Positions 4,083 to 27,299 of a stretch of DNA of 64,000 nt are shown piece after piece. The notes under the pieces are model-generated. The model ran no database searches. It was given only the letters and a program-made list of their open reading frames with translations, and was not told the DNA's origin. The stretch's first letter is position 1. Every line of letters starts with the position of its first letter. Where the stretch lies: the IMG/VR virus record IMGVR_UViG_3300023174_000048, positions 138,295-202,294 of that record; one strand, written 5' to 3'. The DNA comes from a virus (taxonomy: Duplodnaviria; Caudoviricetes). Made by a program: the position numbers and the translations under genes.

Positions 4083-4649
4083 TTAAGATTGTGTAGCACA
4101 TTTAATAGTAATAATTTTTTCAATTAATTTTTTACTATCTGTAATTGAAGATACTATGAATTTAAATATACTAATATTTTGTTGATTATTTGAAATAGAT
4201 AGATTTACTGGAACAACACCTTTTCTTACAGATATTGTTTCATTAGTTGTTGTCCCTGGTTTTGGGATTGTGTATTCAGAATACTTTACAGACTGTACGT
4301 TAATATCTGTTGGTAATGAATTTGTTGTCAATTCAACAAGCTCAAAAGAATACTGATAAGGATCTAATTTTAATTTACTAACTTCAAATTCTAATATTCC
4401 ACCTAAGCAACAGAAATTTTCTACTATATCATTTCCTACTATTGTATTCTCATAATTTAGTACAATTTCTGGAGTAGGATCAAAGCAAATTTTTTGAGCT
4501 ATCCATTCTACTATGGATCCATCGGTAAGTTTTGTATACAGTCTTCCAGTAACGCTATTTATTACTAATTCTCCAACTAAAACCTGATCGACACTTGGAA
4601 AGCCATTACCGCTTTCGTCTCTTTTTAATAGTAGTTTCATACTGAACAT
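4083..4649 (-). CDS. Virion protein with Mtd_N/hyaluronidase-like N-terminal module
   Basis: N-terminus LLLKRDESGNGFPSVDQVLVGELVINSVTGRLYTK resembles the N-termini of 41255..45547 and 45564..50429. Confidence 0.55.
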   Translation of the reverse strand: MFSMKLLLKRDESGNGFPSVDQVLVGELVINSVTGRLYTKLTDGSIVEWIAQKICFDPTPEIVLNYENTIVGNDIVENFCCLGGILEFEVSKLKLDPYQYSFELVELTTNSLPTDINVQSVKYSEYTIPKPGTTTNETISVRKGVVPVNLSISNNQQNISIFKFIVSSITDSKKLIEKIITIKCATQS

Positions 4650-10100: not shown

Positions 10101-10598
10101 TATAAATAATGGGTTTGATGATTCTATTAGTTTTAATTCAATAATAATATTGTTTGACTGGTCTAATGATGGAAGATTAATACTGATAGATTTTGAAGAG
10201 CAGTCTACAAGATACAAGGCGCTTATAGGATCTAAAGATAAATCTTTATCAATAACGATTGTGTTGTTTAGTCCTTTGTCAAAAGAACTTTGATTAGCAA
10301 ATACATAAAAATCATTACCAGAAGATGGAAAATCTACTGTATTGTTATTATTAGACGATGAAATAGTCTCAATTCTTTTAACAACAATATTACCAATATT
10401 ATCAAATACTATTTCTCCAACACCAGTTTCAAATAGGCGACTATTTAAGTTTCTGGCTATGTAAGGAATTAAATATCCTACATGATTGGTATTAAGAATA
10501 TTATATGTTTTTATAGCAGATACTGGCTTAATACCGTCATTTTCTATAACGAAATTAAATCCAATATTATCAAATACTCTTATTAGTTTGTTTGACAT
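7143..10598 (-). CDS. Tail-tip/receptor-binding protein with a circularly permuted FGE-sulfatase (C-type lectin fold) domain
   Basis: Immediately after TMP. SYYGTYDQNGNAAEW..GFRIAS precedes YRIGKYEVTN..KPVVFVSY..NWLHNG..WLPNLNEWHKAAYY. Confidence 0.7.
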   Translation of the reverse strand: MSNKLIRVFDNIGFNFVIENDGIKPVSAIKTYNILNTNHVGYLIPYIARNLNSRLFETGVGEIVFDNIGNIVVKRIETISSSNNNNTVDFPSSGNDFYVFANQSSFDKGLNNTIVIDKDLSLDPISALYLVDCSSKSISINLPSLDQSNNIIIELKLIESSNPLFINDKDGSLVCTLDSFNNYARLASTGKDWVVLNNKTPERMGVQSLNNDSDTFSIMSADINNAEMYWDSGSQRVFIGANSASSADTIIPTSGTYPFVVNNNSNGSDFIVYGSGSLNKNLFFSYDGRVGINIPSGSRPSTVFHIVNTVCQEGLRLENRTSCYPANITLYHKPSTDITSGSVVSQINLSAKNSTGNQTNYAQIESRAVNTTVYGEKGSLDITVVSGVTGIKTIQTTVDSTYVGYSGNRLQINNNGNLLLTNGSSQITVSPQSSITFSSASLYATGTSYLTNISSQNIDASNITISNLGSSGLLMVSGGKIINSPLSIDSAGSLRIPVPANKLLSTTANGAITGIYTLDDYFLTERDIVWTKYSPRTATACLRQITFADSVPSDEFAPGDQIVISYNGSNLYRRVISLELNGNAIVGLLVDESIVQNTTSNVNIYSITKGGYLTMTKSVDDGIISNSSSNTLSIRPLVDTTFNAGQKDINFSVYGLGDDPALFIKANTGRILIPSGIYSGFATGRSDMFSTIINITGVGLSNQYSSANYAYDNSRNIFSGLLSSVGTNGLPSYYGTYDQNGNAAEWIEKQDAIESRDSIEFIAGGAYSTANDSIIGSNVLKSIESLIRASGYNYVGFRIASLQGITDQTYISSTNGLNMSFVGVNNPKNIEDLNPIYIKNPAGSPTVYSQQVINNLGVVNNIYRIGKYEVTNTQYCAFLNAVAKINDRELYDIRMSSNAQGGITRISNAGYEYSTKSNMGDKPVVFVSYLSAIKFINWLHNGASITLSESDIDYNLSVGAYTIYSIGSNSYNVVKSSYRKYWLPNLNEWHKAAYYRPVNSNDFTGTSTVSIKRSEPEIIATGIDITGSAAKLYANLSVSGWLYVDHIVVGDGTIRSAKSFTGLTDPVVVDTPTSQGTTTVSPSINLLTQYNNPYASVFGSVASCISAGCSFNAKPLRLDEDTISLCSDNTLSYNEIPWWCDTNNNGPGWFN

Positions 10599-10601
10599 AT
10601 A

Positions 10602-13600
10602 TTAGGTTCTCATTGGGCGATTGTTTGCGGCTGAGTTTAAATTGCCTTCAAATTGGGTTCTATCGTATTTAGCTACTGTATTTTGACTTGTAATAGCTCC
10701 AGCATAATGACCAGCACTTTCTCCAGCACTTTTTCCAGCAGCAGAAGCGTGGTTTTGTACAGAGCCTACGTCTAATCTAACCGATTGTGTACCATTTATT
10801 TCTGCTGTTAATGATGTTGGTATTTGACTAGCAGTCTCTGACCAAGTATTTGCTGAACTAGCAATTGTTTGTGAGGCACTAGAGAATGTTTGGCCGAAAT
10901 TGTTTAATGTTTCAGTACTGCTTTGTATCATTTGACTATATGTTTCCATTCCTGATTCGAGTGCGGTGCTTAGTTGGTTCATAGCCTGTCCTACTGCAGC
11001 GCTAATACTAGACGATATATCATTAGATACACCACTACTACCACTACTGCCGCCACTACCTCCACTAACTAATCCAGCCTCAGCATAATATTTGGGCGCA
11101 ACTATTCCACCATTGGCCAAATAGTTAACAATTCCACCTCTATTGAAATGGCCACTATTTATAGCATTAAGAAGAGGCATATGTTGCTGACTAGACTCTC
11201 TGTTAACAACAAACTCTCCAGGAGTTAGCATGGCTGGTACAGTATCTGTTCCCTGAGATAATGATGGAACTAATGCTCCATTATTAGCATATACCAAGCC
11301 GCCAGAAGCATACATCATTCTACCACCAGCAGGCTTAGGAACATTCTGTATTTGTCTTTCTCTTTCTGCTTTTTTATATTCTTGTGACTGAGTGTAGTGG
11401 TCAGGAATAAGTCCTTGCGCCCCTAACTCTTGTGTTCTCTGTTCTATTCTTTTTGATTCTGCTGCATTATCGGCCATTTGTCTGGTTGTGGATTCTGTTT
11501 CTACAACTAATTGTGCTGCTGCTCTTCCAGGACTAAACATGTTCTCGCCAAAATTTTGAGCATACCCTTGCTGTCTTTGTCTATCATTTTCTTTAGCATA
11601 GTCTTCTGCTGTTTTTTCTCCGCTCATTATTGCTGCTGCTTCGGATGCGTAACTGCCAGCAGCATAACCTCCATAAGCAGCAACGGCGCCAATGCCTGTT
11701 GCGGCAGCAGGACTTGAGGTTCCTAGTCCAAAAACTTTTGCTCCATGACCAACAGAGTGTGCTGTGTGTCGTGCTTCTCCGATCATATCAATTCCTTCTC
11801 CAACCAATGTTGCTGTGTGTCCTGTACCAAAATGGGCATCAAGATTAGATCCCATTGTTCTCATATTTAATGGATTTCTTCCTCTGGTAGCAACAGCGGA
11901 CAATCCTGTAGAAGCAGCATTTCCAGCCAAAGAACTAGTTGTCATACCATGATGACCATGAGAATCATGACTGTCATGATCGTCAACATGACCACCATTA
12001 CCATAATATCTTACTAGTCCACCTTTATTATATCCATGGAATTTCATTAACTTCTTTAAAATTCTTTCTGCTATTTTATTGCCTTTTACTTTTTCGATAT
12101 TTTCTACTAATGTTGTTAGTAGTTCTGATGGATTCTTTTTTATAGCCGATGAGCTGTATCCATTCTTGCTCTTGCCACCACTAATAGAAGATAATCCACT
12201 AGGATCATCAACAAATTTTTCTATTTCTTTCATTAAGGGCGATTTCTGTAAACTTCTTTTTCCAAAAGGATCTTTTTTACTACCTTTCGTACTTTTTTGA
12301 AATAGATGACCAAGCTCGTGTTTCACAATACTCTCATCAGCATATTGAGATCCAAAAACTAGTTTTGATTCTGCTGTTGTCATACCAACTTTACTAGAAT
12401 TTGTTACTGGTCTATTTATTCCTTTTATTTGTCTACTAGCATTGATTTTGTCTAGATCAACCGATACGGATTGTGGTGTAGATTTTTCAACAAATTCTGA
12501 TAAGAACTTATTCCTTCGTGCTGGAGTAACATAATCAGCCAAATCACTTGCTAAATTCTCCTGAACTTGTCTGAATGACACCGGGTCTGTAACATTAACT
12601 TTTGATTTTGTGGCTGTTGTTGGCTTAACTGGTTTAGTTGGAATAGTTGGTTTAGTTGGTTTGGGTTTTACTATAGATGGTCCGGCAACTGTTGTTTTAG
12701 CTTTTCCTAACACGCTTTGGGTCGCTGTGCTATTTGGAACACCTTGATTAACAAGATCTTGAATCTGTTGATATTGTGCTGCTGTTATTTTGGGCTTAAC
12801 TTGTGGACCGGGTGTTGGCATAGTCAAATCAATATTTGATAATTTTTCATCCAATGCTCTGCTTCTTGCTGCTTTAGCTTTGGCCGCTAGTCTACCATAA
12901 TTACCATCATACTCTAATGGATTAATATCGTCTATGCTTCTGATTTTGGTGGGAGCAGACTCTGGGAATGTTACTGGCTTTGCTGGTTTTAAATTCTTAT
13001 AAGAAGAAGTAGTGCCTGATCTATTAAGATTTGGTCTTGAATAACTTGGGGCAATACCTCTAACTCCTATAACATCACCCATTTGAGTAGCAACATCTTG
13101 AACGCCCTCAACAAAATTATTAACTGCCCTTCCGGCTCCACGAGCACCAGGAATTCTACCACCCAATCTTCCTGCTCCTCTGGCAGTTGATGTAATAGCT
13201 CTATCTACTGTTCCAGCAACTCTGCCAACACTAGCAGCACCAGGTATTTTACCAGCAGCCCTACCAACACTAGAAACACCAGGTATTCTACTAGCGACCC
13301 TTCCAGCAGCCCCTGCCATTCGACCGGCAACATTAAATACTGCTCCTTCAGCATTAACTAATGCTCCTGCGCCTTGAGTGCTTCCATACGCAGTAGTTTG
13401 AGCAAATGCTGTACCAAAGCCAGCCCAACTATCCATACCACCAGCCAGCTCCACATTTCTAGCATCATTACGTTGTAATGCTGTTTGCTCACCAGTTTGT
13501 ATCGGCCCCATACCAGCAACAGCTTGTCCGGCTTCAACAAAACTAGTTGCTCCAGCACCCATAGCCCTTAGTCCAACATCGGCGGCCGCAGAAGTTGCTG

Positions 13601-16600
13601 CAGAATAAGCTCCCTGTTGATTATTTAGTCTGTCGCTGTTTGCCGTAAATGTTCTTGCTCTTATAGCAGCAACATCTTGAGCAGCCGCTATCTCTTGAGG
13701 AGATGGCATTGGTCTGCCATTAGCTCTAGCCTCATCATACATATTTTCGGCTGTTCTGTTTCTTAAATTATTTTCGTCTCCAATTTTAAAAGCTGTATCA
13801 TCTCCAGACATAGCATATCCAATACCTCCAACAATAGGAGATGCAACTGTTGCAACTGCTCCGGCAGTTATATTTGCCGCCCCATAAAGGGCGTCTCCAA
13901 TACCCTGAGTTACTCCTCCAACATATCCTACTGCTGCCGTAGCAGGATTGCTACTATTTATATATAATGATGCTTGTCTATCTTCTTCGGCTTTTTGCTG
14001 TTGTGCTCTAACCTTTTCTGCCGCACTAACTTGTTGGGCCCCTTCAAATTGTGCTATCGCTTCGCTATTTGCTTGATCCTGTAATAGTTGTTCTGTTGTT
14101 GGAACCTTATAGCTTGCAACAGATTCCTTATAAGGTTTAGGCATATATGATCTTTGTTCATCTCTATATTTGTCTCTTTGCTCTTCTTTAACTTTTCCTT
14201 CGGCTAAGAATTTATTAAATTTATTATCTATTTCTGCTGTTTGAGCATCTTCTTTAGCTTTATTTCTTTCATTGATTACTTGCTGTCTTCTTTGTTTCTT
14301 ATAAGCTTCTCTATTTCCTTCATCATCTCTCCATGCTCCTGATTCTAATAGTTGGTTAAATTCAACATCAAATGCTTGTTCTTGAGCTGCTATTTGTGCT
14401 CTTTTTTCTATTCCTATTTTTGTGCTAGTAATAGCACTATCTGCTTCTCTCTTTTTCTTCGTGTCGCTTGAAGTTGTAGCCGTTTGAATTGAAGAAGATA
14501 ATCCTGGACTAGCAGTTATTCTATAAACATTTTGTGTTTCTGCTTTTGCTCGTATTTTTGGATCATTACTATATTCTAATGGATCTGTAGCGCCAACAGA
14601 TTGATAAGAATTTATTTGACTATTCGGCATAAACAACTGATTTGGATATTTTATCATTGTCTCAGTCGCTAGTACATTCGATGGTGATCCAAGAGGAAAG
14701 TTAAACCAATCTCTGCGTGAGCTTTCTCTATCTCTAGTTGTTTTTTGAGACTCAAACCTTGGGGTATTAGGATCTCCTCCATATGTATAATTTGTTCCAG
14801 CAACATAATCTCCAGGCAACGATACTCTAGGACTTGGAACCATTGGACCAATATTAACGCCTAATCTTCCATCCTGATTTTTAATTTCTGGTGTTCTCAA
14901 ATTAACAGAAGTATTAGTCTGGGTTGCTTGTTGAGTTTGCTGTGCCTCATAAGCTCTATTATCGGCTATGCGATTAACCATTCCTTCTAAAGGATTTCTT
15001 GTTTGGTATTTTGGATCATTTGGATCTGGCTTTTGTAAAACCTTATTGGTAGTATAAGATGCTAATCCTGTTTGAACACCAGAAGAGACCGCAGGATCAG
15101 TTATATCAGGTCTTGCAGTAGTATACTGCTGTCTAATTCCTGATTCGATTGCGGCATTTTGTTGGGCAGCCTGTTGCTCATTGCTTGGTCTTGAGTAGCC
15201 TTCATTTATTCTAGAGGCCGTTGCTGGATCAAGACCGCTAGGATTTACTGCGTTGCTAGTTATTGGAGGCAACGCAGCACTAAATGATAGAGCACGTAAA
15301 CTTCCTCTATTTCTACGATCAGAACCTAACTCTTTTAGGGCTGATCTTTCTTCTGGTGTTATCTCATTAGACTGAGCACCTTTACGATAAGCACTATTTA
15401 CTAAAGAAGAAATATTACGATCTTTTTCTACAGTATATGGACCGACCTCTCTTTTTATTTGATTAGATTTCAATGTTGCATATTCTGTTTCTTCTTCTGG
15501 ACTTCTTCCTTTGCTTCCTTTCATCCACAATGATCGTCTTCGTGAGTCTTCAGATTTGATTTTTTTCTTCTCGTCAATAGCTTCTTGAGTTGGTCTAATT
15601 TTTGTTGTTGTTCCTCTGCCCCACGGAATAACATCTGCTCTTACTAAAGGAACCGGTAATGATGGTTGTATTACTGGTTGTGAAAATTCTTGTGGAGACA
15701 GCGACGTTTGAGCTATTGGAGTATTTAATGCTGCTGTTTCAGCATCGCGTGCTTTTTCAAATCTTTCTGTAGCTCTTTTCTTTTCTTCGTTAAAAAAATT
15801 AGCACCAACAATAGCAGAATTAGGATCCTCCTTTATGCTACCATATCCTGCATCGTTAGCGCTTCTGAGCTGTGCATCGTTTTCTTTATTATTATAATTA
15901 TCCCATCTATTTTGAAATTCTGGTTCATATTTTTTGGCTTCTGATTGTCTTTCATCTTCTGTCATCCCCATCCATCTACCATCGCCTACCTGAGATTGTG
16001 CCCAGCTAGATGATGTTCTAGAAACTACCTCATCAGGTCTTCCTCCAGTTGCTTCTGACATCATCCATGATTCTTTTTGAGCATCTATTCTTTCTTCTTT
16101 TCTTTTTTGTACTTCGCCACCCTGTGCTAAATAAACCACTCCGCCCTTACTATAATTTCCACTATTAATAGCTTTCAATAATGGCAAGTGTTCTGAGGTT
16201 GATCTTGCATTAATCACAAACTCGCCCGGAGTTAACATAGCAGGAACAGTATCAGTTCCTTGTGGTTGGAAATTTACTAATTGACCTTCACTAGCATAAA
16301 TTAATCCTCCGCGAGCCTTCGGAGGAGCAACTGGGGCGGCAACTCCGATATTTAATGGAACTTTAGCTCCGCCAGGAGCATTAATTCTACCTTCATTCAT
16401 ATCATTATTAAGCATACTAGCTTCAACAGTTGTTCTAAGATCATCTATACTAACCTTAAGGTTGGCATTTGCTGATACTAGAGCCTGCTGAGATTCTAAT
16501 AAAGCCAACTCTCCTTGTGCCTTAGTAGCATCAGCCTGTAATCCAACAGACTGTAAATATTTGCTAGAAGCTTCTTTCATTGCGGGATCAGCGTTAGGAT

Positions 16601-19600
16601 TTTCCATAGCAGCTATTGATTGCTGAACAAGAGGATTATTCATCATTCCACTCTCGATAGCCATACTCTTTGTTAATTGTAATTGTTGTTGTTTAAAATA
16701 GTCAGCAACAGCTTGGTCAGCACTTACCCCAGGCTTTCCTTTACCCTGAGCATATTGATTTCTAATATTTAATTCTTGAGCAGCTCTTACTCCAGGATCT
16801 TGTGATAGGGCCAGTGTTTCTTTTCTTTGATTGGCTAATACTGTATTACCAGCCTTAGTAGCTTCTCTTACACTTCCTGTTTCTCTTAATGTTTGATTAA
16901 ATGCTTTGCGAGCATCTCTTTGATTACTAGCACCATTTAATCCTCCAGAAAGATTTCTTTGAAGTCTTATAAATGTTTTATTAAGTTTATCAGCTTCTTC
17001 TGGAGTATTTGTTAGTAATGTATTAACAAAACTTTCTCTATTCTTCTGAAGATCTCTAACATTCTTTAAATCATCAAATGCTTTTTCTACTAATTCTGTG
17101 CTACTTGCTAATGTGTCTAAAGCTTCTCTTGTATCTCTTAATTGATCGTCTAATGATCTTAGTTGTATAGCAGATTTTTTAAGTTCATCAGGATCGCTCA
17201 TGCCCTGTCTTTTTTCTTCTACTGCTGTTCTTTGTGCTTGTAAGTCAACAATTCTATTTTTAATTCCACCAACAGAGGTTTCTCCGCCAGCTAATCCGGC
17301 CACATCACCCATAACTCTTGCTTGTTTCTCATCATAAGTTTCACCAACGCCCGTCATAACCTCTCTAAGATTCATATCTCCTTGAGCTCTGATATCTCTA
17401 GCTTTCTTAAAATAGTTCTGAGCATCTTTTGCTGCTTTACTAGCATCTCTAAGACCTTCGGAGAAATCGGCTAATGCCCCTTGTTTAAACGATGATAATG
17501 CTTTTACTGCTTCAAGCGTTTTAACTCCAAAGGCCCCAAGAATATTATCGGCATCTCCTAATCCTTCTCTAAAAGCGTCTAATTCTGCTTGAGGCGTATC
17601 ATTTTTTTTCTTAGCTTCTTCTGCTAAATTATTTATTCTTGTTTCTGCTTGTTTTTTAAGGCTTGTCTTTTGTTCATCTGATAAGTTTGTTTTATCTATT
17701 TGTTCATTAGTAGTTTTAATAGCCTCTGTTTTGGCTTCTTCAACTCCCAAGCTTCCCTTGGTACTTAATTTTTCTGCTATGCTTTTTGTTATAGCATTTG
17801 GTAATTGTTGTTGTAGTTGTGCTCCGCCTATTAACTGGTTCCTAGTTTTTTCATCAACTCCTGCTGTTGCAGACTGTAAGGCTTGATTAAAATCTTTTTC
17901 AGAATAAGCATTTGGATTTTCAAGAACATTTAATTCTCTTAACTTTGGACCATTATCTTCTGATTGTCCTCTTAATGCTGATCTGCTTTTTTCTGCCGAT
18001 GATTTTCTAACATCAGATTCGAATTTAATTCTATTAACAGATTCACTAATAATATTTGATAATTTTTCAAAACTAGCTGCTAGTTTTCTGCCAGCTTTGT
18101 CTGCAGCCTCTAAAGCATCAGACATTTGTTTTGTTTTTATTGCAGATTGAACCTGAACATTTGTCAGTATTTTTTGATTAGCAACTTCATCTAATATTGC
18201 ATCTTGTTTTTCTTTAGAAACCTTCTCATACCCACCTTCTTCCATAATTCTTGCTCTAACCGTTTTAAGAGCATCTTCATCTGCTAATACTAATGCTCTT
18301 CTAGCCCCAATTAATTCTTTATCTGCTTGTATAGATTCTACACTAGCTCCAGTATTAATTTTTTGTGATATTAAAGCAAATGCTTTGTCTCCACTATCAG
18401 CATTTCTTTCAGCTATCTTGCTATCTAATTCATTAAAATCTTGAGTATCCATCTTTGGCTTTTCTGCTCCGGATAGAAACTCTGTCCATGTTCTAGTTTT
18501 ACCCTTTTCATTTTGTGCAACCTTAGTCTCAGCAGAAACAGCTTTTAGAGATGATTCTGAGGATCTAACAAGAGCCTTATCTAAAGCCTTTTGTAGATCT
18601 ATATTACCAAGATCTTTCTCAAAATCCTTGAAAGCCTTAGCCAAATCTTTTTCAGAAGCGGCCACTTCTTCAAATCGTAAATTCTTTTCCATCTCTAGAG
18701 CAGCAGTTTCTTGTGCTCCAGTAAAATCGGTAAAATAATCAGTAGCAGCATAGACTACTGTACCTAGTGCTGTTAATCCTCCTAATAGGGGATTTATAGC
18801 CATTAATTGAGAAGCAGTTGTTAAACCGGTTGCTAGTGTTGATCCGGCCTGTTCAATAGCGGCCCCTTTACCAGCAGCAGCAATCTTTCCTTCGTCTGTG
18901 GAAGTATCATACATTAGATTTGCAATATTTTTCCCTTGTCCACCAACTAATCCTGCCACCATTCCAACGTCTCCCAAAGCTGTTCCAATTCCTTGGGACA
19001 TTGTTCCTGAGAAGTATCTTTCTTGAACAGCTTTTTTAATAGGACTATTTCTAATATCAGTTAAACCACCAGCGCCAACTCCTTTTTCTCCCTGCTCTTT
19101 GGCCATCTCATTAATCATTTCTCTTCTTTTACTAACTTCTTCCTTAGCAAGAGAGAGTGCTTCTGATGCTGATTTGACTGAGACACCTCTAACAGTTCCA
19201 GCATTCTTATATTCTTCTAATCTCATTGCAATAAGCTGTTTATCCATCTGAGCTAATGTTTTACGATCAGTCATTGACTGAGAAACATAACTTTGAATAT
19301 CAGCTCCGCCGATGCCCATTCCTGAAAGTTCTGATCTTTTAATTCCAGTAACTTTTTCTGTGGCTGATGAGAATGCCTGCTCTTTAATCTGTCTTTGTTC
19401 TTTTTCTAATCTTCTATTAGTTCTTCGTTCTAGTTTATCTTTATCTCCTAATAATGATGGATCTTTTTTGATTAAATCTTTTTCTATTTGTGATTTTCTT
19501 TGTGCTGTAATTAATTTTTCTTTTTTCTCAGCTTCTGTTAAAATGGCTTGCTGGGCACCACCCGAACCAAGAACTTTACCTGTTTTTGATTCTTTTAATC

Positions 19601-22600
19601 CTGCTTCTAAAAATTGTCGTTTTGCTACTGCTGTTTTAGCTTGATCTCTAACATTCTTTAATGCTTTTTCTGCTGCTATTATAGTGTCTATTGATGCTCC
19701 AGTAATCTTGAGTCTTTCAACATCCTTAGTCATTGCCTTTTCAATATCTTTATAAGATATGTCAGCTCCTGCCCCAACTTGTTCAAGAACTTTCTTAAAG
19801 CTTATCATGCTATAACCAGCTTCTTCAAAACCTTTTGTTAATAGTTTAATATTATTAACTAGTTCTGATGAAGCTTCTATACTTTTACTATCAATAGTTT
19901 CTGGTCTGGTTTTTAATTTTTGAACTGCTGGTTCAGCAAAACCTTTTAATCCTTTCATTATTTCTTCAATACTAAAAACACTACCTCCAGTAGCAAATCT
20001 TTGAATTACTCCTCCACCAACTACTCCTCCCTTATTATAACCCTGTAATTTATCCGCTTTATTTAATGTCTCTAACTTGCCATATCCTATTTTTTCTGCT
20101 GCTTTCTTATTAACAACAAATTCACCAGGAGTTAATAATGCAGGAACAGTGTCCTTTGATGATATTCCTGCTTGTCCTCCTTGAGCAAAGGTCTCGATAT
20201 TGGTTGGCTTCAAGGGAGATGATCCAACATATTTTAATGCTAATCCTAGTGGTTTTTCAAAAAGTTTGGATTCAAAAGAATTTACTAATTCGGGATCTCC
20301 AGATTGTATTCTGGACATAAGCTGACCCAATAAAGCCCCTTCTCTTACATCTCCTTCACTTCCGGCATAAATAGATTTTCTTGATCCTCCAGGCAAGGTA
20401 AACTCTGTTCCGTCTTCGGACTTTAATGTTTGAGATCCTTCTTGAACACGTACTCCAACCGACATCATCCCAGCGTCTGGATTTTTATCAAACTTACCTT
20501 TTAATCCGGTTTGATTTTCAGTAGGAGCATATTTATCTTTAAGAGTATCGTAATTATCATGCATCCATTGTACCACTAGTCCTTTTTGTAATTCATAATC
20601 TAAATCATAAGTTTTTGGATCTAAAGTTTCATCAAAACTTAATACCATTGGTTTTCCTGATCTATCTCCTTGAGCAACAGTGAAGTTGCTTCCTCCATTA
20701 ACTCTCATCTTAGCTTGTTGTTCTGCTTTATTCTTTTCTGTATATAAGTAGAATCCTTCTCCTTGACCATATCCTTTAGCAATATTAGAAAGGGCACCTT
20801 TTTCTTTAAAGCTCTTTAAAACACTATCATCAACTCCGGTATTGCTTCCGTGATATAGTTTAACTTGTCCTCCAGTAGCATATCCTCTATTTTTTCTCCA
20901 CATTTTTTCATCATTAGTTTTGGTCTCAAACTCTTTTGGCTTGCGACCTTGTTTTTCCATAGCCTCTTGTATTCTTTTTTGTTTATTAGCCTGGGCAAGT
21001 TCATATCTTTCTTGTTCTGGTGATGTTTTTTTAGATGGTATTAGTCCAAATCTTTTGTTTATCTCCCAGTCTGGAATAGCATAGTCTTTATATCTATTAT
21101 CTAATCGTTCTTCTAATTTTGCTGTGAGTTCTTCTTGGCTCATGCCCAAAGTCTTTGCTCGTGCGGCAATATCGGGTGGGGAATATGATCCTCTTACCCA
21201 GCCACCCTCGGAAAGCATTTGTATGTCTTCTTTGACGGGTTCTGGAATTCCATATTGTTGTCTAAAATGTTTTTGGAATTCTTCAACAGCCTTGCCTCTA
21301 CTATTACTATCTATTGTTCTTTTAACTTCTGTTGGAATATCAGGATCGATACCAAATATTTTTGCTGCTTTAGATCCGATGCCCATTGGAAAGTCAATCG
21401 GACGAGTTCTTAAAGCATCGTCTAATATTGTAGCATCTGCTGATCCAAAAATTTGTTCTAGTAAAGCGCCTTCAATATTACCCTGACCTAATGTTTCTCT
21501 TTGTTTTTTAGTTAATTTCTTTGGAGATATTCCAAGAAGTTTGGCTGCTCCGCCTACAATTTCTTCTGTTTGACCACTAAGATAATCAATTACATTTTGA
21601 TATTGATTTGGTAATCCTCTCTGAACTATTGAAGCATCTATTGATCTTTCTTGTCCAGACGAATCAACTCCAAGATTCCAAGTTTCTGGCCCTAATAATC
21701 CAGTATATCCCAATGGATTTAATCCAACTAGTCCTAATTGTTTTGACGATAATACAGCGCTAGTTGTTTCTGCTAGTGACGTGGCCTTTTGAGTTCCTTG
21801 TGATTCATTAAATTTGTCTATTAGATAGTCTCTTGTTGCAATATAGTAAGCGAGCTTGTCTGCTTTTGTTTCTGGTCTAAATGCAGAATTCCAGTATTTT
21901 AATTTTCCTCCTTCGGCGGTATCTCTTACTGTTTTTCCTGAGAATGGACCAAAACTTGCGTCATTTGGTAATCTGTCTGTTCCAAATCTTTTTAATATCT
22001 CTGTTCCTTGTGCTGGTAATATCCCAGAAGACTTCTTGACCTGAGTAGCCTTTTCTACATTTTTTAGTATTGCTTCTTGTAGTCCAGAAGGCATTGCTGT
22101 TGGCACCCCACTAAATTCACCGGCCATGCCTTCAGACAATTGGGCCGATATGACATCTTTAGATAAGTCGGATGGCTGTGCTGATACTGATGCTCTGCGT
22201 GATGGATCTAATCCATAAGCATCTGGATATTTAGCAGATAATAAGGAGATTATATTGTGTGCTCTGTAGCCCAAAAGACTGGAACTCAATTCGTCTCTTT
22301 TCTCTCTCATAGCTTCAATTTGGGCTACTACATCTGGAGCATTGTCTCTTACCCTTTGAGTAATATTTTTGCCGTATGGGCCTCCTGGAGCTTCTGCTAA
22401 CATTTTTTGAATTTCAGCATTTGTTTGAGCTTTTTGATTTGCTCCATATTTTGTTATTTCTTCAATAAGCATAGGAACCATCACGCTGCGATTTCTTAGC
22501 TGTGCTCTATTGCCCATGAGAACAGAAGCAACTTCTGGGCTAACAAAACTAGTTAAAGCTTCATCATCTCCATTAATCACTGCTTGCCTAACTTTAGTAG

Positions 22601-25600
22601 CACTAATATCGTCTATCCTTGGAATATCTGTTACGTCAACTCCTGCTTTTTCATATTTTTGAAGAGCACCGGCTTTTTTCCCTGATGTGATTGCTAATGC
22701 TCCTTTTAGTTTAGCAAATTTTCTACGACCATTAGCTCCTTGAACCTCCATCATTTTTGGCAAAACATCTCCTCTGCCAGTTGATTCGGCACTTATCATG
22801 CCTCCAGGAAAATTAACTCCTGCTAATAATGCTCTAAAATCTGCTGGAAATATGCCATATCGTGCAGCATGTGCGAGCTTCTCTGCGTCGGTATCTCCTT
22901 CTCCTCTGTCCATCGATAAATTAGGAGCAACACTCACTATAATATCTTCTGCTGAAGCATTTGGATTTCTAGAAATCATATTACTTAATAAAGTATCAAA
23001 TGCTCCACGATGGCCTCTGGTCGGTGGAGCAAATCCACCAGTGTAGTATCCACCAGCCTGAACAATTTCTGGCAATTCTTCTTCAGTCTTACGTCTTAAA
23101 CCAAAACCTCCTGGTTTGCGACCAAGAACGGTTGCCCTTTTACCTAATTCATCCCTTAATATACTCTCTTCTACTGTAAAATCTCTAGGAGCAATATTTG
23201 TAATTCCTGGTTTACGACCATATAGACCTTCCCCCGTTAAATCTCTCTGAACTCTATTAGCTCCTATTTGATCTTGTTCTTCTGTTGTATTGGAACTTAA
23301 TATATATGCTCTATCAACATCTTTTAAATATGCATCTAATTTTTCTTGACTAGCAGTAGATGTTAAGACTATAACCTCATTAACTTTAGCAATATCTTCA
23401 GGGCTAAGAATTGAAGAGCGAATAGTTTTTCTTAAAGTTGCATCATCTGGAGATCCTTTTCCCGTAGCCAAACTACTTTTGCCTGATCCTGCTGCTCCAG
23501 CGATTGCTGTTAATTTTGATAAAGACTCTTCTTTTCTTGCTTGTGCTGCTAATTTTGCTAATTCTCTGCTATATAAACTAGTATTTGTAATTCCAAGTTT
23601 TTCCATGGCTGGTCCAACAATATCGGCATTTGCTGGATCTCGTAAAACATCTGTATCTATAATTCCTATATTTCTTTGTACTTTTCCACCAGCAGCATAA
23701 GTTTGTCTCTGAATACCAGCACTACCCAATAGATCAGTTAGTGTAGAATCTAAAGCTCCTTGAAGATTACTATCAAGTCTAGGATAGTTCTGAACTAGTG
23801 TTGTTAAAAATTCTTCTTTCCCACTATCTTCTATTCTATCAATATAAGATTGAGAAATACTATTATCTAATAATACCTGATTAACTTCTGGATTTAATGG
23901 TTTAAAATCTTTAGCCTTTTTAATACCAAGAGATTTTGCCCAAAGAGAGGATGCGGCGGTGGCTGCTTCGGGAGTTTTAGCAGGCTTGTCTCCCCTGCTA
24001 ATAGATCGATTTTGTTGTATAATTTGATCTAATGTTCCAACTTTGTATGAACGTCCATATACAACATCCGAACTATTATAGCTGGACTCTAAAGCATCAA
24101 ATGCATCTGCTAAATCATTATTATCTCCACTAAATAGTGAAACAACTCTTGATTTATATTTATCAAAACTCTCTGATGATCGTGTTCTTAATCCTTGAAA
24201 TAATTGATGGGTCATTTCATGATAAAAAGTATCATTTTTTCTACCAGAAAGTCTTCCGGTGCTCATGGTGATCGCGCCACGGCCAGTAGCTTTAGCTGTG
24301 GTTTGCATCTGATCCATAGCAGTTAATTCTGCTTGGTTTTTTAATTTTTTAGTATTAGATATCTTCATTTGAAGATCATTAATCTCATCCCAAGTTTGTT
24401 TAGCTAATGCTTCATCATATGAAAAAGATCCGTCATCAAAAGTTTTTACTGGTGTTTTTATTATTTTCTTCAATTCTTTTTGTTTTTCTGCTACTAATTT
24501 TTCATATCCATAAAGATCCTGGTCATTGGCCTCTGTATATCCAGAACCAGATAGGTCATAGCCAGATGTGCTTTTAGTACCCATACCCGTTCTATCAAAT
24601 TGACCAAGACCTTTTAATCCCAGATCAGTAAAATCAATATGACTTGGTAGAGCTAATGATAAATCTTCTTTTGGTAGTCCTATGAATTTAGCAAAGTCAC
24701 TCATTCTTCTATAAATAGCGCTATTAGCTAATTTACTCTTGAAAGAATCTGCAAACTGCTTTCTATCGAATGGTATTGAGTCAAAAGCTTCGGTTGCTTT
24801 TGCTTGATCCACTTTGAATCTAAAGTCTTCTGGATATTCCAAGAAGGATCCTCCACTAAAAGCTTTATCAACTTGTTCTTTATTTAGCTTGGCGTCTATT
24901 TCTTTGAAATAGGCATTACTAATTCTTTTGGGAAATGGAAAAGTTCCACTTCCAAATGATCGGGTTTCTTTTGCTTTTCCTCCGGCCATGAATTTTTGAA
25001 TTTTTCCACCAAGATTTTTTTCTGTAAATCTACCTGTTTTAAATTCATCAGATATAGTTAAAATATTTGAATCGCCTTCTATAAGTAATCTATTATATCT
25101 ATCTTTATCTCCTTGTACAATTTGTTTCTTTAACTGCTTCAATTTACCTTCATCTGCATTATTCAGATTTTTTTTCAGTTCTTCTGTAGCCTTGTTTCCA
25201 GCCTCCACAGCCGTTAGTCCTGAATCTGTTACTATTGTTTCTGGTGGTATAACCCAATCATTACTCTTTTTTCCTGTTTTTTTAACCTTACTTAATATAT
25301 TAGCATTTTTTTCATATTTTGATATTTGATCTAATTTTGCTTGACTGACTTTACTTTCTCCAGTTTTTTTAGAGTTAGCTCTCTCGCCCATAGTCTCATA
25401 TGCATCAAAACCTCCTACTCTGAATTCTACTTCAAAAGGCTTTGGTCTAGGAATAGCAGTTGCAATAAAGCTATCTCCATCTTTTACTTTTTTAATACTT
25501 TCAAGTGATCTTATCTCAACAGCACCACCGCTAGCAAACCCTTTTCTTCGGTTTGATCCTCCAGCTCTTATACTTCCTCCACCACCATACTTATTCATAT

Positions 25601-27299
25601 TATGAAGATTATCCGATCCTATAGTCTCAACAGCTTTTTTTCGTATCACAAATTCTCCTGGCTCTAACATTGCAGGAACAGTATCTCCACTACCAGTGCC
25701 TGGAACAACACCTCCTCTTGCGAATTTTCTAATTACTCCACCACTAGCTTTACCATCTGGTCCTCTTTTAACTCCAGTACTAAAACCACTAGCAAATTGA
25801 GTTAAAGCTTTGGCGCCCTTAAATGCTGTTATAACAGCAAGAGCGGGTAATATTCCTTTAACAGCATCTGTCACTTTAATTAGTCCACTAGCTAAACTTA
25901 AAGCTCCTCTTATTAATGACTGAAAACCTTTTGATTGTCCTATTTCTCTGAATAGAGCAAAAAACTCTTGTCTTACTTTGCTAATTTGATTGGCCAAAGA
26001 AAGTTGTGCTGTTGCAGCATCTTTCGCTAATGATCCTTGACCAGCTTGTGCAGTCTTTAATGCTTCTTGAGCAACTGTGAACTGCTGAATAAGCGGAATA
26101 ACTTTACCAATTTGTCGGAATCCACCAAGTTCTTCAACTATCTTAGAGAACTGAGCAGTTCTTGGATCAATTCCACTCAATCCCTTACTTAATAATTCAA
26201 CAGCTTTATAGGCTCCTACGAATTTACCTTCGGTATCAGTTAGATTAACTCCAAACTCTTTGAGAGAATCAATTGTGCTTCCTCTCTGAATACGAGTAAA
26301 AATAGTTCTTAAGCCAGTAGCAATAGTTTCAGCACTTTCACGAGTTGTAGCACGAACACTTGTGAACACTGCTATAAATTCATTTAAAGCATCCTTACCT
26401 TCACTAACTCCTTTACTTGCAGTTGCAAATACGCTACCCGTTCTTTGAACAGCAGTAATAATGTCAGAAGATTCAACAGCGAATCTTGCAGCAACAGTAT
26501 TTACAGCACCTAGTGCTCCTTCTAAATCATCAGCACTAATACCAAACTGTCTCATTAATGCGATACTTCCTTCTACTGTCTCATTCATATTATCAAATGA
26601 TGGAGCTAAACTACTTAAAGCTAAAGCTCTTAATGCTTTTTCTGTTTCTCTCGCACTCAAACCAGCCTGTGCTAATGTAGAAGCAACAGAGGTTAAATCT
26701 TTAGAACTAACACCAAATGTTGTTGACAGATTTGTAATTTGTTCTTGTAGTTTTGCAAGGCCAGATGACGATTCTCCGGTTACCTGTTGTAATTTAACTA
26801 ATTCTTTATCATAATCAATAAATGCTTGAACACCCTGACTAATACTATTTGTTAATCCGTATATAACACTAGTAACAGTACTAAATGCTACGAATCTTCT
26901 AATGGCAAGACCAGCCTGTTTACCGAACTCTTGCATCTCTGCTGATGCTGATCCAAGATCTTTTGCTGACGAGGCTGATGCTTTGTTAAGTTTATTAACA
27001 GCATTAGCTGCTGCATTTATTTGTTGTGGAACGTTATTTATTTTGACGCTATTTATGCTGTTACCAAAAGCTTTGATAGCTGCTGAAGCAGCAGTAGCAG
27101 ACGTTGTCGTTGAACCAAATGCGGCATTTAAGCCTTTGAGAGACGATGACAAAGCCGCAACATTTTTAGTAACAGCAGGATCAAGCTTAAAAGTAATATT
27201 TGCATTAATGTTACCAAGATCTTTTTTAATTTGTGCAGCAATTTGCTTTACATTTGTTGGTCCTTGTAAATTCAGTTGTGCAGTTAAGTTGAATGCCAT
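10602..27299 (-). CDS. Giant tape measure protein (5565 aa) with embedded enzymatic cargo domains
   Basis: Follows the tail tube and chaperones. TP901-like core near the N-terminus (RRFVAFS..QAFIDYDKELVKLQQVTG..LAQAGL..ETIATGLRTIFTRI), long A/K/E helical stretches and four DTVPA(M/L)LxPGEFV repeats. Confidence 0.9.
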   Translation of the reverse strand: MAFNLTAQLNLQGPTNVKQIAAQIKKDLGNINANITFKLDPAVTKNVAALSSSLKGLNAAFGSTTTSATAASAAIKAFGNSINSVKINNVPQQINAAANAVNKLNKASASSAKDLGSASAEMQEFGKQAGLAIRRFVAFSTVTSVIYGLTNSISQGVQAFIDYDKELVKLQQVTGESSSGLAKLQEQITNLSTTFGVSSKDLTSVASTLAQAGLSARETEKALRALALSSLAPSFDNMNETVEGSIALMRQFGISADDLEGALGAVNTVAARFAVESSDIITAVQRTGSVFATASKGVSEGKDALNEFIAVFTSVRATTRESAETIATGLRTIFTRIQRGSTIDSLKEFGVNLTDTEGKFVGAYKAVELLSKGLSGIDPRTAQFSKIVEELGGFRQIGKVIPLIQQFTVAQEALKTAQAGQGSLAKDAATAQLSLANQISKVRQEFFALFREIGQSKGFQSLIRGALSLASGLIKVTDAVKGILPALAVITAFKGAKALTQFASGFSTGVKRGPDGKASGGVIRKFARGGVVPGTGSGDTVPAMLEPGEFVIRKKAVETIGSDNLHNMNKYGGGGSIRAGGSNRRKGFASGGAVEIRSLESIKKVKDGDSFIATAIPRPKPFEVEFRVGGFDAYETMGERANSKKTGESKVSQAKLDQISKYEKNANILSKVKKTGKKSNDWVIPPETIVTDSGLTAVEAGNKATEELKKNLNNADEGKLKQLKKQIVQGDKDRYNRLLIEGDSNILTISDEFKTGRFTEKNLGGKIQKFMAGGKAKETRSFGSGTFPFPKRISNAYFKEIDAKLNKEQVDKAFSGGSFLEYPEDFRFKVDQAKATEAFDSIPFDRKQFADSFKSKLANSAIYRRMSDFAKFIGLPKEDLSLALPSHIDFTDLGLKGLGQFDRTGMGTKSTSGYDLSGSGYTEANDQDLYGYEKLVAEKQKELKKIIKTPVKTFDDGSFSYDEALAKQTWDEINDLQMKISNTKKLKNQAELTAMDQMQTTAKATGRGAITMSTGRLSGRKNDTFYHEMTHQLFQGLRTRSSESFDKYKSRVVSLFSGDNNDLADAFDALESSYNSSDVVYGRSYKVGTLDQIIQQNRSISRGDKPAKTPEAATAASSLWAKSLGIKKAKDFKPLNPEVNQVLLDNSISQSYIDRIEDSGKEEFLTTLVQNYPRLDSNLQGALDSTLTDLLGSAGIQRQTYAAGGKVQRNIGIIDTDVLRDPANADIVGPAMEKLGITNTSLYSRELAKLAAQARKEESLSKLTAIAGAAGSGKSSLATGKGSPDDATLRKTIRSSILSPEDIAKVNEVIVLTSTASQEKLDAYLKDVDRAYILSSNTTEEQDQIGANRVQRDLTGEGLYGRKPGITNIAPRDFTVEESILRDELGKRATVLGRKPGGFGLRRKTEEELPEIVQAGGYYTGGFAPPTRGHRGAFDTLLSNMISRNPNASAEDIIVSVAPNLSMDRGEGDTDAEKLAHAARYGIFPADFRALLAGVNFPGGMISAESTGRGDVLPKMMEVQGANGRRKFAKLKGALAITSGKKAGALQKYEKAGVDVTDIPRIDDISATKVRQAVINGDDEALTSFVSPEVASVLMGNRAQLRNRSVMVPMLIEEITKYGANQKAQTNAEIQKMLAEAPGGPYGKNITQRVRDNAPDVVAQIEAMREKRDELSSSLLGYRAHNIISLLSAKYPDAYGLDPSRRASVSAQPSDLSKDVISAQLSEGMAGEFSGVPTAMPSGLQEAILKNVEKATQVKKSSGILPAQGTEILKRFGTDRLPNDASFGPFSGKTVRDTAEGGKLKYWNSAFRPETKADKLAYYIATRDYLIDKFNESQGTQKATSLAETTSAVLSSKQLGLVGLNPLGYTGLLGPETWNLGVDSSGQERSIDASIVQRGLPNQYQNVIDYLSGQTEEIVGGAAKLLGISPKKLTKKQRETLGQGNIEGALLEQIFGSADATILDDALRTRPIDFPMGIGSKAAKIFGIDPDIPTEVKRTIDSNSRGKAVEEFQKHFRQQYGIPEPVKEDIQMLSEGGWVRGSYSPPDIAARAKTLGMSQEELTAKLEERLDNRYKDYAIPDWEINKRFGLIPSKKTSPEQERYELAQANKQKRIQEAMEKQGRKPKEFETKTNDEKMWRKNRGYATGGQVKLYHGSNTGVDDSVLKSFKEKGALSNIAKGYGQGEGFYLYTEKNKAEQQAKMRVNGGSNFTVAQGDRSGKPMVLSFDETLDPKTYDLDYELQKGLVVQWMHDNYDTLKDKYAPTENQTGLKGKFDKNPDAGMMSVGVRVQEGSQTLKSEDGTEFTLPGGSRKSIYAGSEGDVREGALLGQLMSRIQSGDPELVNSFESKLFEKPLGLALKYVGSSPLKPTNIETFAQGGQAGISSKDTVPALLTPGEFVVNKKAAEKIGYGKLETLNKADKLQGYNKGGVVGGGVIQRFATGGSVFSIEEIMKGLKGFAEPAVQKLKTRPETIDSKSIEASSELVNNIKLLTKGFEEAGYSMISFKKVLEQVGAGADISYKDIEKAMTKDVERLKITGASIDTIIAAEKALKNVRDQAKTAVAKRQFLEAGLKESKTGKVLGSGGAQQAILTEAEKKEKLITAQRKSQIEKDLIKKDPSLLGDKDKLERRTNRRLEKEQRQIKEQAFSSATEKVTGIKRSELSGMGIGGADIQSYVSQSMTDRKTLAQMDKQLIAMRLEEYKNAGTVRGVSVKSASEALSLAKEEVSKRREMINEMAKEQGEKGVGAGGLTDIRNSPIKKAVQERYFSGTMSQGIGTALGDVGMVAGLVGGQGKNIANLMYDTSTDEGKIAAAGKGAAIEQAGSTLATGLTTASQLMAINPLLGGLTALGTVVYAATDYFTDFTGAQETAALEMEKNLRFEEVAASEKDLAKAFKDFEKDLGNIDLQKALDKALVRSSESSLKAVSAETKVAQNEKGKTRTWTEFLSGAEKPKMDTQDFNELDSKIAERNADSGDKAFALISQKINTGASVESIQADKELIGARRALVLADEDALKTVRARIMEEGGYEKVSKEKQDAILDEVANQKILTNVQVQSAIKTKQMSDALEAADKAGRKLAASFEKLSNIISESVNRIKFESDVRKSSAEKSRSALRGQSEDNGPKLRELNVLENPNAYSEKDFNQALQSATAGVDEKTRNQLIGGAQLQQQLPNAITKSIAEKLSTKGSLGVEEAKTEAIKTTNEQIDKTNLSDEQKTSLKKQAETRINNLAEEAKKKNDTPQAELDAFREGLGDADNILGAFGVKTLEAVKALSSFKQGALADFSEGLRDASKAAKDAQNYFKKARDIRAQGDMNLREVMTGVGETYDEKQARVMGDVAGLAGGETSVGGIKNRIVDLQAQRTAVEEKRQGMSDPDELKKSAIQLRSLDDQLRDTREALDTLASSTELVEKAFDDLKNVRDLQKNRESFVNTLLTNTPEEADKLNKTFIRLQRNLSGGLNGASNQRDARKAFNQTLRETGSVREATKAGNTVLANQRKETLALSQDPGVRAAQELNIRNQYAQGKGKPGVSADQAVADYFKQQQLQLTKSMAIESGMMNNPLVQQSIAAMENPNADPAMKEASSKYLQSVGLQADATKAQGELALLESQQALVSANANLKVSIDDLRTTVEASMLNNDMNEGRINAPGGAKVPLNIGVAAPVAPPKARGGLIYASEGQLVNFQPQGTDTVPAMLTPGEFVINARSTSEHLPLLKAINSGNYSKGGVVYLAQGGEVQKRKEERIDAQKESWMMSEATGGRPDEVVSRTSSSWAQSQVGDGRWMGMTEDERQSEAKKYEPEFQNRWDNYNNKENDAQLRSANDAGYGSIKEDPNSAIVGANFFNEEKKRATERFEKARDAETAALNTPIAQTSLSPQEFSQPVIQPSLPVPLVRADVIPWGRGTTTKIRPTQEAIDEKKKIKSEDSRRRSLWMKGSKGRSPEEETEYATLKSNQIKREVGPYTVEKDRNISSLVNSAYRKGAQSNEITPEERSALKELGSDRRNRGSLRALSFSAALPPITSNAVNPSGLDPATASRINEGYSRPSNEQQAAQQNAAIESGIRQQYTTARPDITDPAVSSGVQTGLASYTTNKVLQKPDPNDPKYQTRNPLEGMVNRIADNRAYEAQQTQQATQTNTSVNLRTPEIKNQDGRLGVNIGPMVPSPRVSLPGDYVAGTNYTYGGDPNTPRFESQKTTRDRESSRRDWFNFPLGSPSNVLATETMIKYPNQLFMPNSQINSYQSVGATDPLEYSNDPKIRAKAETQNVYRITASPGLSSSIQTATTSSDTKKKREADSAITSTKIGIEKRAQIAAQEQAFDVEFNQLLESGAWRDDEGNREAYKKQRRQQVINERNKAKEDAQTAEIDNKFNKFLAEGKVKEEQRDKYRDEQRSYMPKPYKESVASYKVPTTEQLLQDQANSEAIAQFEGAQQVSAAEKVRAQQQKAEEDRQASLYINSSNPATAAVGYVGGVTQGIGDALYGAANITAGAVATVASPIVGGIGYAMSGDDTAFKIGDENNLRNRTAENMYDEARANGRPMPSPQEIAAAQDVAAIRARTFTANSDRLNNQQGAYSAATSAAADVGLRAMGAGATSFVEAGQAVAGMGPIQTGEQTALQRNDARNVELAGGMDSWAGFGTAFAQTTAYGSTQGAGALVNAEGAVFNVAGRMAGAAGRVASRIPGVSSVGRAAGKIPGAASVGRVAGTVDRAITSTARGAGRLGGRIPGARGAGRAVNNFVEGVQDVATQMGDVIGVRGIAPSYSRPNLNRSGTTSSYKNLKPAKPVTFPESAPTKIRSIDDINPLEYDGNYGRLAAKAKAARSRALDEKLSNIDLTMPTPGPQVKPKITAAQYQQIQDLVNQGVPNSTATQSVLGKAKTTVAGPSIVKPKPTKPTIPTKPVKPTTATKSKVNVTDPVSFRQVQENLASDLADYVTPARRNKFLSEFVEKSTPQSVSVDLDKINASRQIKGINRPVTNSSKVGMTTAESKLVFGSQYADESIVKHELGHLFQKSTKGSKKDPFGKRSLQKSPLMKEIEKFVDDPSGLSSISGGKSKNGYSSSAIKKNPSELLTTLVENIEKVKGNKIAERILKKLMKFHGYNKGGLVRYYGNGGHVDDHDSHDSHGHHGMTTSSLAGNAASTGLSAVATRGRNPLNMRTMGSNLDAHFGTGHTATLVGEGIDMIGEARHTAHSVGHGAKVFGLGTSSPAAATGIGAVAAYGGYAAGSYASEAAAIMSGEKTAEDYAKENDRQRQQGYAQNFGENMFSPGRAAAQLVVETESTTRQMADNAAESKRIEQRTQELGAQGLIPDHYTQSQEYKKAERERQIQNVPKPAGGRMMYASGGLVYANNGALVPSLSQGTDTVPAMLTPGEFVVNRESSQQHMPLLNAINSGHFNRGGIVNYLANGGIVAPKYYAEAGLVSGGSGGSSGSSGVSNDISSSISAAVGQAMNQLSTALESGMETYSQMIQSSTETLNNFGQTFSSASQTIASSANTWSETASQIPTSLTAEINGTQSVRLDVGSVQNHASAAGKSAGESAGHYAGAITSQNTVAKYDRTQFEGNLNSAANNRPMRT
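11990..12600 (-). other. TMP domain: second HExxH zinc metallopeptidase-like domain
   Basis: KHELGH at 12306..12320 (aa ~4994) and downstream NPSELLTTLVE, paralleling EEFLTTLVQ of the first copy. Boundaries approximate. Confidence 0.55.
20200..20880 (-). other. TMP domain: ADP-ribosyltransferase-like (H-Y-acidic clade)
   Basis: KLYHGS (H ~aa 2150), GEGFYLY (Y ~aa 2184), later DLDYE. Begins directly after YATGG. Confidence 0.55.
21240..21920 (-). other. TMP domain: PD-(D/E)xK restriction-endonuclease-like
   Basis: GALLEQ (E ~1948), RPIDFP (D ~1969), PTEVKR (E-x-K ~1991-1993). Boundaries approximate. Confidence 0.5.
22500..23050 (-). other. TMP domain: HxGH nucleotidyltransferase (NMNAT/cytidylyltransferase-like)
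   Basis: YTGGFAPPTRGH (23010..23039) and C-terminal ISATKVR (~22588..22608), matching the (T/H)xGH and ISSTxIR signatures. Confidence 0.7.
23060..23690 (-). other. TMP domain: P-loop small-molecule/nucleotide kinase-like
   Basis: Walker A GAAGSGKS at 23475..23498 after a hydrophobic strand (LTAIA), and a lid-like NRVQRD. Confidence 0.6.
23700..24975 (-). other. TMP domain: first HExxH zinc metallopeptidase-like domain
   Basis: FYHEMTH at 24207..24221 (aa ~1027) and distal GKEEFLTTLVQ (~23796..23820). Bounded by FMAGG and YAAGG. Confidence 0.6.
25040..25520 (-). other. TMP domain: staphylococcal nuclease (SNase/thermonuclease)-like
   Basis: KVKDGDSF (25470..25481), FRVGGFDAYET, AGNKATEELK and DKDRYNRLL, in the SNase order DGDT / R..GIDAPE / G..A / DRYGR.L. 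Confidence 0.7.

Follow-up and report, generated by a model that had tools for sequence, protein, structure and literature searches.

Repeated Gly-Gly Modules Border Exchangeable Cassettes in a Giant Phage Tape Measure Protein

RESULTS

Cassette Borders in a 5,565-residue Tape Measure Protein

The analyzed window, a stretch of 64,000 nucleotides from a virus of the Caudoviricetes (Duplodnaviria; IMG/VR record IMGVR_UViG_3300023174_000048, positions 138,295 to 202,294), contains a minus-strand open reading frame (ORF) at 10602–27299 whose translation is a single chain of 5,565 amino acids (P0001). The protein includes a PhageMin_Tail domain (Pfam PF10145, residues 185–391) and a match to TIGR01760 (tape_meas_TP901, residues 146–479), and its gene sits in a terminase-portal-capsid-tail block, between tail-type ORFs and in the company of fibronectin-bearing tail proteins; on these grounds P0001 is identified as the tape measure protein (TMP) of a large, uncultured phage. 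Comparison with related TMPs revealed that an ~80-residue module, present in four full copies, and a set of shorter joints lie exactly where one relative has a cassette that another lacks or has replaced, or where identity shifts. These motifs are very probably cassette delimiters that act at the level of the protein.

Eleven short motifs ending in Gly-Gly had been listed in a preliminary description of the sequence and each was found in P0001 where it had been reported: FARGG (residue 526), FASGG (588), FMAGG (770), YAAGG (1201), LSEGG (2029), YATGG (2140), FAQGG (2371), FATGG (2435), LAQGG (3724), YASGG (5330), and LANGG (5394). The pattern [FYL]AxGG occurs nine times, compared with 0.62 ± 0.81 times in 2,000 shuffles (maximum 5). 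The longer string DTVPA[ML]L[TE]PGEFV, for which four copies had been claimed, is present exactly four times, at residues 539, 2383, 3683, and 5352 (window positions 25685–25647, 20153–20115, 16253–16215, and 11246–11208, respectively), in agreement with the coordinates first given for it. Self-BLAST of the whole protein produced nothing, whereas division of the protein into chunks revealed the repeats, and the repeated unit proved to be the ~80-residue module alone, with unrelated flanks. An origin of the four modules by fusion of four whole TMPs was rejected, as the module flanks have no similarity to one another. Each module runs in the order (F/Y)AxGG, ~12 residues, DTVPAMLTPGEFV, a short helix, YxxGG, and (F/Y/L)AxGG. 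Of the eleven short motifs, seven flank the four modules and four stand alone (residues 770, 1201, 2029, and 2140); the consensus of the stand-alone and junction motifs, GG-K-V/I-Q-K-F/L/Y-A-x-G-G-K-V, matches the C-terminal tail of the module.

Along P0001, coverage by the 119 relatives is stepwise, with the sharpest block edges at residues 602, 771, 1200, 2026, 2139, 2361, 2445, 3738, 5103, 5324, and 5410. Module 1 (short type; residues 522–599, 25503–25736, minus strand, as are all features of P0001 given below) consists of FARGG, DTVPAMLEPGEFV, and FASGG, and 48 homology blocks end beside it at residue 602. Module 2 (short type; residues 2367–2444, 19968–20201), with FAQGG, DTVPALLTPGEFV, YNKGG, and FATGG, has edges on both sides, 54 blocks starting at residue 2361 and 18 ending at residue 2445. 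Module 3 (long type; residues 3658–3735, 16095–16328) contains KARGG, DTVPAMLTPGEFV, YSKGG, and LAQGG, with 73 block ends at residue 3738, and module 4 (long type; residues 5328–5405, 11085–11318), composed of YASGG, DTVPAMLTPGEFV, FNRGG, and LANGG, lies between 71 block starts at residue 5324 and 24 block ends at residue 5410. A fifth stretch identified in the module profile search is a half module that retains the C-terminal half only (YNKGGLVRYYGNGG; residues 5069–5105, 11985–12095), where seven blocks end at residue 5103.

The stand-alone joints are similarly placed. The joint GGKIQKFMAGGKA (residues 764–776, 24972–25010) coincides with 20 block edges at residue 771, and GIQRQTYAAGGKV (residues 1195–1207, 23679–23717) with 29 block starts at residue 1200. 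At DIQMLSEGGWV (residues 2025–2035, 21195–21227) 40 blocks end at residue 2026, and at KNRGYATGGQV (residues 2136–2146, 20862–20894) 20 blocks start at residue 2139. Five of five stand-alone joints are located no more than 6 residues from a homology edge (P ~5e-7). Across the family, 116 homology edges fall at [FYLMW]AxGG where 11 would be expected, and an edge is present at 45% of the stand-alone motifs; these family-wide edge counts are not independent events, because related proteins share junctions by descent. The earlier suggestion that most cargo domains start right after a motif applies to approximately half of the block edges (600, 776, 1206, 2034, 2145, and 3736) and fails for the rest, which are free of a motif (1704, 1846, 1921, and most of those inside 3740–5300).

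Individual relatives show what these edges consist of. P0009 exactly lacks residues 776–1198 and has one hybrid joint left in their place, and P0003 lacks residues 2037–2139, again with a single hybrid joint remaining. A tract of P0002 that is 96% identical to P0001 stops at the end of module 3. Between P0001 and P0004, identity in successive cassettes is 99, 30, 97, 65, 94, 100, and 99%. The same borders are visible in the DNA, where blastn alignments to four IMG/VR contigs break off at positions corresponding to residues 590/593, 770, 1204, 2021, 2141, 3731, 5100, and 5336; homology to L003 restarts at residue 770 and another L003 block ends at residue 5100, and homology to L004–L006 starts at residue 1204. 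The comparison proposed in the preliminary description, whether insertions and deletions in related TMPs start and stop at the motifs, thus gave a positive result at both the protein and the DNA level.

Module Homology and Distribution

No family corresponding to the module was found in Pfam or NCBIfam, although in lambda the region falls within TIGR01541, and a query with a single module against the sequences of the PDB gave a chance match only. A profile built from 54 diverse copies (alignment A2) and used with hmmsearch against the same sequences matched three TMP sequences with solved structures: mycobacteriophage Douge gp16 twice (residues 963–1038 and 1409–1472; 8zdo_S, E = 1e-17), lambda gpH (residues 733–788; 8iyk_H, E = 2e-5, with E = 8e-9 for gpH in the reverse check), and Pseudomonas phage JBD30 gp46 (residues 1017–1087; 8rk3_A, E = 9e-5). 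Matches to the profile also occur in at least 18 PHROG TMP families, in most cases near the C terminus, and the module was found in 155 GenBank phage records, many of them with two places. The statement that a single copy near the C terminus is common in TMPs is borne out by both of these sets. In a large protein library, 36,401 cluster representatives match the profile with up to 14 copies per protein, at least 150 representatives having 4–14 copies. By sequence homology, the ~80-residue block, which has no name, is an ancient component of siphophage TMPs and is related to the lambda, JBD30, and Douge stretches. No relevant paper describing the module or a multi-module TMP was found in literature searches, and in the papers searched the modules of actinophage TMPs are without description as a feature.

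In lambda-like TMPs the module occurs once, between a hydrophobic segment and the C-terminal tip anchor. The local order in lambda gpH is a hydrophobic segment (691–722), FATGG (733), the module core, YATGG (778), a linker, and the anchor helix (818–849). In P0001 module 1 follows a hydrophobic stretch (residues 472–501), module 4 lies 160 residues from the end, and the mini-joints, like modules 2 and 3, lie inside the chain, such that no single module both follows a hydrophobic segment and shortly precedes the C-terminal anchor. Residues 1–600 repeat the order of ruler, hydrophobic stretch, and module, and residues 5328–5565 that of module, linker, and anchor or conserved end. The ~4,700 residues between the first and the last module hold two full modules, a helical block of 1,200 residues, and two variable cargo regions.

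All of the 120 relatives (3,000–7,800 residues) carry modules, 2–11 each and mostly four or five, and complete relatives of ~2,000–3,000 residues still have at least two. In a tree of modules the copies group by position and not by genome, the first and second being of the short type and the internal and last of the long type; the copies are therefore old paralogues with no sign of gene conversion. Further occurrences were noted in cultured phages. The TMP of the cyanophage Nodularia phage vB_NpeS-2AV2 (L002:9046–19260, 3,404 residues) has adjacent module cores at residues 1004–1042 and 1076–1124, far from its C terminus, and module matches were also observed in "hypothetical proteins" of cyanomyoviruses (P-TIM68 and S-BM3) and in Pelagibacter phage HTVC103P.

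Predicted Structure

AlphaFold2 (AF2) predicted the module as a β-hairpin followed by two helices, at low confidence and with low-confidence linkers around it; for the lone module a single helix was predicted with a predicted local distance difference test score (pLDDT) of 62. In the AF2 model of residues 1995–2450, LSEGG is situated in a linker with pLDDT <50, the first strand of the next domain begins at residue 2145, directly after YATGG, and this domain ends before FAQGG. The cassette itself (residues 2145–2366) was predicted with pLDDT 70–86. A Foldseek search with the model of residues 1995–2450 returned weak ADP-ribosyltransferase-fold rows only (cholera toxin A, Tpt1/KptA, and tankyrase; E = 0.2–1), and the cassette was given no fold label. 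Prediction of a complex of three module copies gave a score of 0.02 and was run without controls, so it was used neither for nor against self-association.

Overall Architecture and Genomic Setting

The modules and joints divide P0001 into conserved and variable parts. The N-terminal TMP core (residues 1–521, 25737–27299), which ends with the hydrophobic stretch at 472–501, is conserved in 117–119 of the 119 relatives. It is followed by a variable cargo region (region B; residues 600–2366, 20202–25502) with stepwise coverage by relatives and jumps of identity from cassette to cassette, which consists of six cassettes (residues 600–769, 776–1198, 1206–1700, 1701–2028, 2034–2139, and 2145–2366). 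A conserved helical block (block C; residues 2445–3657, 16329–19967) with a hydrophobic segment at 2831–2853 is found in 70–116 of the 119 relatives. The hypervariable region D (residues 3736–5327, 11319–16094), with HELGH at residue 4994, is common to 0–27 relatives. The C-terminal tail (residues 5406–5565, 10605–11084) is comprised of a Ser/Gly linker and a conserved end like that of short relatives, and is presumed, by analogy with the lambda, JBD30, and Douge structures, to be the tip anchor.

Free shuffling of cassettes between slots was mostly rejected, since cassettes keep to their side of block C, with the exception of residues 2145–2365. This cassette (residues 2145–2365/2366, 20202–20861) is placed after block C rather than before it in P0053, P0083, and L009. 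P0001 contains no cysteine and 112 of the 120 relatives are likewise cysteine-free, which fits with a chain that would be kept and exported unfolded.

The ORFs downstream of the TMP gene encode large tail-type proteins. The nearest of these, an ORF of 1,151 residues at 7143–10598 (minus strand), includes an FGE-sulfatase-type domain at residues 861–995 (E = 2.5e-11), which is unusual in a tail protein.

DISCUSSION

Possible Maturation Joints, Cut or Uncut

The reading favored here, tentatively, is that the joints are protein-level maturation joints inherited from a lambda-type module, and that they are cut. The extended polyprotein stored in the tail would be cut, or at least hinged, at the joints, by an activity other than the embedded HExxH domains, and each cassette would refold and act separately once out of the tail, ahead of the DNA. 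Cassette exchange would appear joint-bounded since only junctions with an intact joint would yield a working TMP, and occasional duplication of a module would make new slots. Cleavage is plausible because the module is homologous to the glycine-rich zone in which lambda gpH is cut. With little DNA in common and a grouping that follows position, the copies are conserved as protein rather than as a DNA recombination signal.

Cutting of TMPs is known in lambda and T5, and some phages have single cell-wall enzymes in their TMPs. It is now suspected that many TMPs are cleaved. The maturation of gpH to gpH* and gpHC (Tsui and Hendrix 1983, as reviewed in PMC12617516) sheds a ~14-kDa piece from the glycine-rich zone, with site and protease unknown and residues ~690–817 unresolved (PMC12617516). 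Cleavage by an activity other than the HExxH domains has a real precedent in gpH. A cut after FATGG would leave a computed fragment of 80.1 kDa, compared with the reported ~78–79 kDa. In JBD30, the homologous stretch was predicted by the authors of its structure to form a β-hairpin and two-helix "hook," with a cut proposed at its end (PMC11445458); the AF2 prediction for P0001 contains these elements as well, at low confidence. A more far-reaching form, in which the joint is a general TMP processing signal, is doubtful: as the tail matures or ejects its contents, cuts would be made at all modules and mini-joints by an activity that is not a recognizable protease, perhaps the module itself, giant TMPs would become trains of separate enzymes that enter the host before the DNA, and lambda gpH would be cut at or around FATGG (733–737).

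Several observations weigh against the reading of the joints as cut. A joint motif is found at only ~15% of homology edges outside modules, and the edges at residues 1704, 1846, and 1921 of P0001 lie without one. No cut is on record for P0001 or for any multi-module TMP, and the cut in lambda may be upstream of the module, as the mass estimates point to residues 710–725. In T5 pb2, for which alone among TMPs a cut has been mapped, the module profile gives no significant match, and just an AEGG string follows R1127. Double-glycine sites of the adenain, C39, Ulp, or JAB type would call for a cognate protease of the phage, but no peptidase family of Pfam was found in the ten ORFs flanking the TMP gene, and Prok-JAB (PF14464) was not found in the nearest relative genome (G001; 131 kb, 95% complete), in which other protease families were not searched; the idea that a JAB peptidase like that of lambda gpK cuts after Gly-Gly found no support here. 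Finally, the 1,699-residue, two-module TMP of Douge fits its 270-nm tail, so that the modules are inside the measuring length and a cut is not needed for assembly.

It is possible, and of modest probability, that the joints remain uncut in a single chain, either as flexible Gly-Gly hinges or as β-hairpin "hooks" that latch into the opened baseplate hub or the tube wall; as such they might hold successive segments in register, or set the pace at which these exit, and allow independent refolding of neighboring domains. The agreement between TMP length, modules included, and tail length in Douge is consistent with this, as are the AF2 hairpin and two helices between low-confidence linkers and the long retention of position-specific paralogues. 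The JBD30 authors, moreover, compare the homologous stretch with the end of T5 pb2*, which is anchored between hub subunits (PMC11445458). Against an uncut role, the module was never resolved in any tail structure, with lambda, JBD30, and Douge among the solved tails, and the lambda homologue belongs to the part of gpH removed by the cut; ~12 conserved residues on each side of the Gly-Gly would not be required in a plain linker. As for which protease might cut, the embedded HExxH peptidases had been proposed to recognize the joints, and P0001 does contain two HExxH strings (residues 1027 and 4994), and processing by zincin-type enzymes is named as a theme in work on phage polyvalent proteins (PMC5512222). 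Cleavage after Gly-Gly by these domains is nevertheless highly improbable. HExxH is absent from 60 of the 120 relatives, all of which carry 2–11 modules, so the embedded peptidases cannot be the general protease; the two cassettes concerned are common to only ~32 and ~7 of 119 relatives, and lambda, JBD30, and Douge have the module without such a domain.

The joints could instead mark crossover points between phages, the nucleotides being conserved as recombination signals and the peptide having no role of its own. Such a role has been proposed for VENN or Rhs-type motifs of polymorphic toxins and, in the context of modular phage evolution, for linker sequences. In the DNA, the ends of homology blocks and the jumps in identity do fall at the motifs, the DNA of module 2 is 87% identical to L006 between flanks of ~70%, and L009 has a direct repeat of the module core (103 nucleotides, 99% identical) that flanks an 870-nucleotide cassette. 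This explanation is improbable all the same, as the twelve joints of the gene share at most 12 identical bases, with an average identity of 46% in register, and synonymous third-position differences separate the four cores. Stand-alone joints span only ~15–40 nucleotides, cassettes mostly retain their slot and order, and the copies, which show no sign of gene conversion, group by position. The peptide is conserved across lambda, actinophages, and the relatives of P0001, far beyond any similarity of the DNA. The suggestion that motif DNA drives recombination is weakened by the little shared DNA, the synonymous differences, and the clustering by position, although one relative does carry an apparently fresh 103-nucleotide module duplication. 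The locus in question (L009:17450–18458, on a 226-kb JGI contig) has its two repeat copies spaced by 872 nucleotides; the TMP ORF stops inside a module and an ORF of 1,947 residues restarts in the second copy, a pattern that reflects either a module recently duplicated, with frameshifts, or an error of sequencing or assembly. If it is not such an error, the direct repeat around a cassette suggests that module duplication creates new slots, as the cut-joint reading would have it.

Comparison with Known Systems

Lambda gpH is a close point of reference, with a homologous module (733–788), the same local order, and a cut that falls in the same glycine-rich zone; it differs in having one module and no cargo, whereas P0001 has four full modules, one half module, four mini-joints, and ~4,700 inserted residues. 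The actinophage TMPs with cell-wall hydrolase domains (TM4-type motifs) resemble P0001 in carrying several modules per protein in cultured phages, two in Douge gp16 and four in gp17 of Gordonia phage BoyNamedSue (near residues 950, 1236, 1629, and 1969), where an SLT transglycosylase domain (1543–1633) adjoins module 3; many Gordonia phages have two module matches per record. In contrast to P0001, these proteins are of 1,700–2,150 residues and hold one or few cell-wall enzymes without strings of cassettes. The same principle is thus already present, in small form, in cultured phages (BoyNamedSue and Douge).

T5 pb2 is likewise cut between a hydrophobic stretch and a C-terminal, enzyme-bearing piece, after R1127, to give pb2* and pb2C, and the new C terminus anchors in the hub (PMC10038345); the module profile, however, gives a best E of 0.18–0.29 in this protein, at other positions. 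The residues that follow R1127 of pb2 (L011:17122–20781, minus strand) are AEGGMMYPGV, an AxGG-hydrophobic-Y string that resembles the N-terminal flank of the long type (KARGGLIY and YASGGLVY). The 5,002-residue TMP of the cultured siphophage Thermus phage P23-45 (gp96) is a giant of similar size, but has neither the module nor an [FYLMW]AxGG motif and is of another construction.

P0001 also resembles polymorphic toxins (VENN in CdiA and PxxxxDPxGL in Rhs), in which a short conserved peptide borders exchangeable domains. A conserved peptide is found directly at the borders of exchangeable domains in P0001, as demarcation in those toxins demands, a functional likeness with no sequence relation. 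A variable C-terminal toxin with an immunity gene was not found at this locus: the variable regions lie inside the chain, its C-terminal end is conserved, and the downstream ORFs are tail-type. Phage polyvalent proteins (Iyer et al. 2017, PMC5512222) share with P0001 the presence of many effector-like domains in one polypeptide, and the paper that describes them does not mention TMPs (PMC5512222). The embedded zincin that accompanies such multidomain chains is not a constant partner of the joints, with two in P0001 and none in 60 of the 120 relatives that have the same joints. From both groups P0001 differs in its sequence and in its serial borders inside a structural protein of the tail, with no immunity genes.

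A conserved element from the zone in which gpH is cut is here multiplied and borders every major exchangeable block. It offers a concrete candidate for a processing or hinge signal in lambda and in the cultured Gordonia and Mycobacterium phages with two to four copies. Collectively, these data suggest that, in a very large group of uncultured phages, modular enzyme cargo is delivered through the lumen of the tail, and the joints would be natural sites at which to insert engineered cargo into phage tails.

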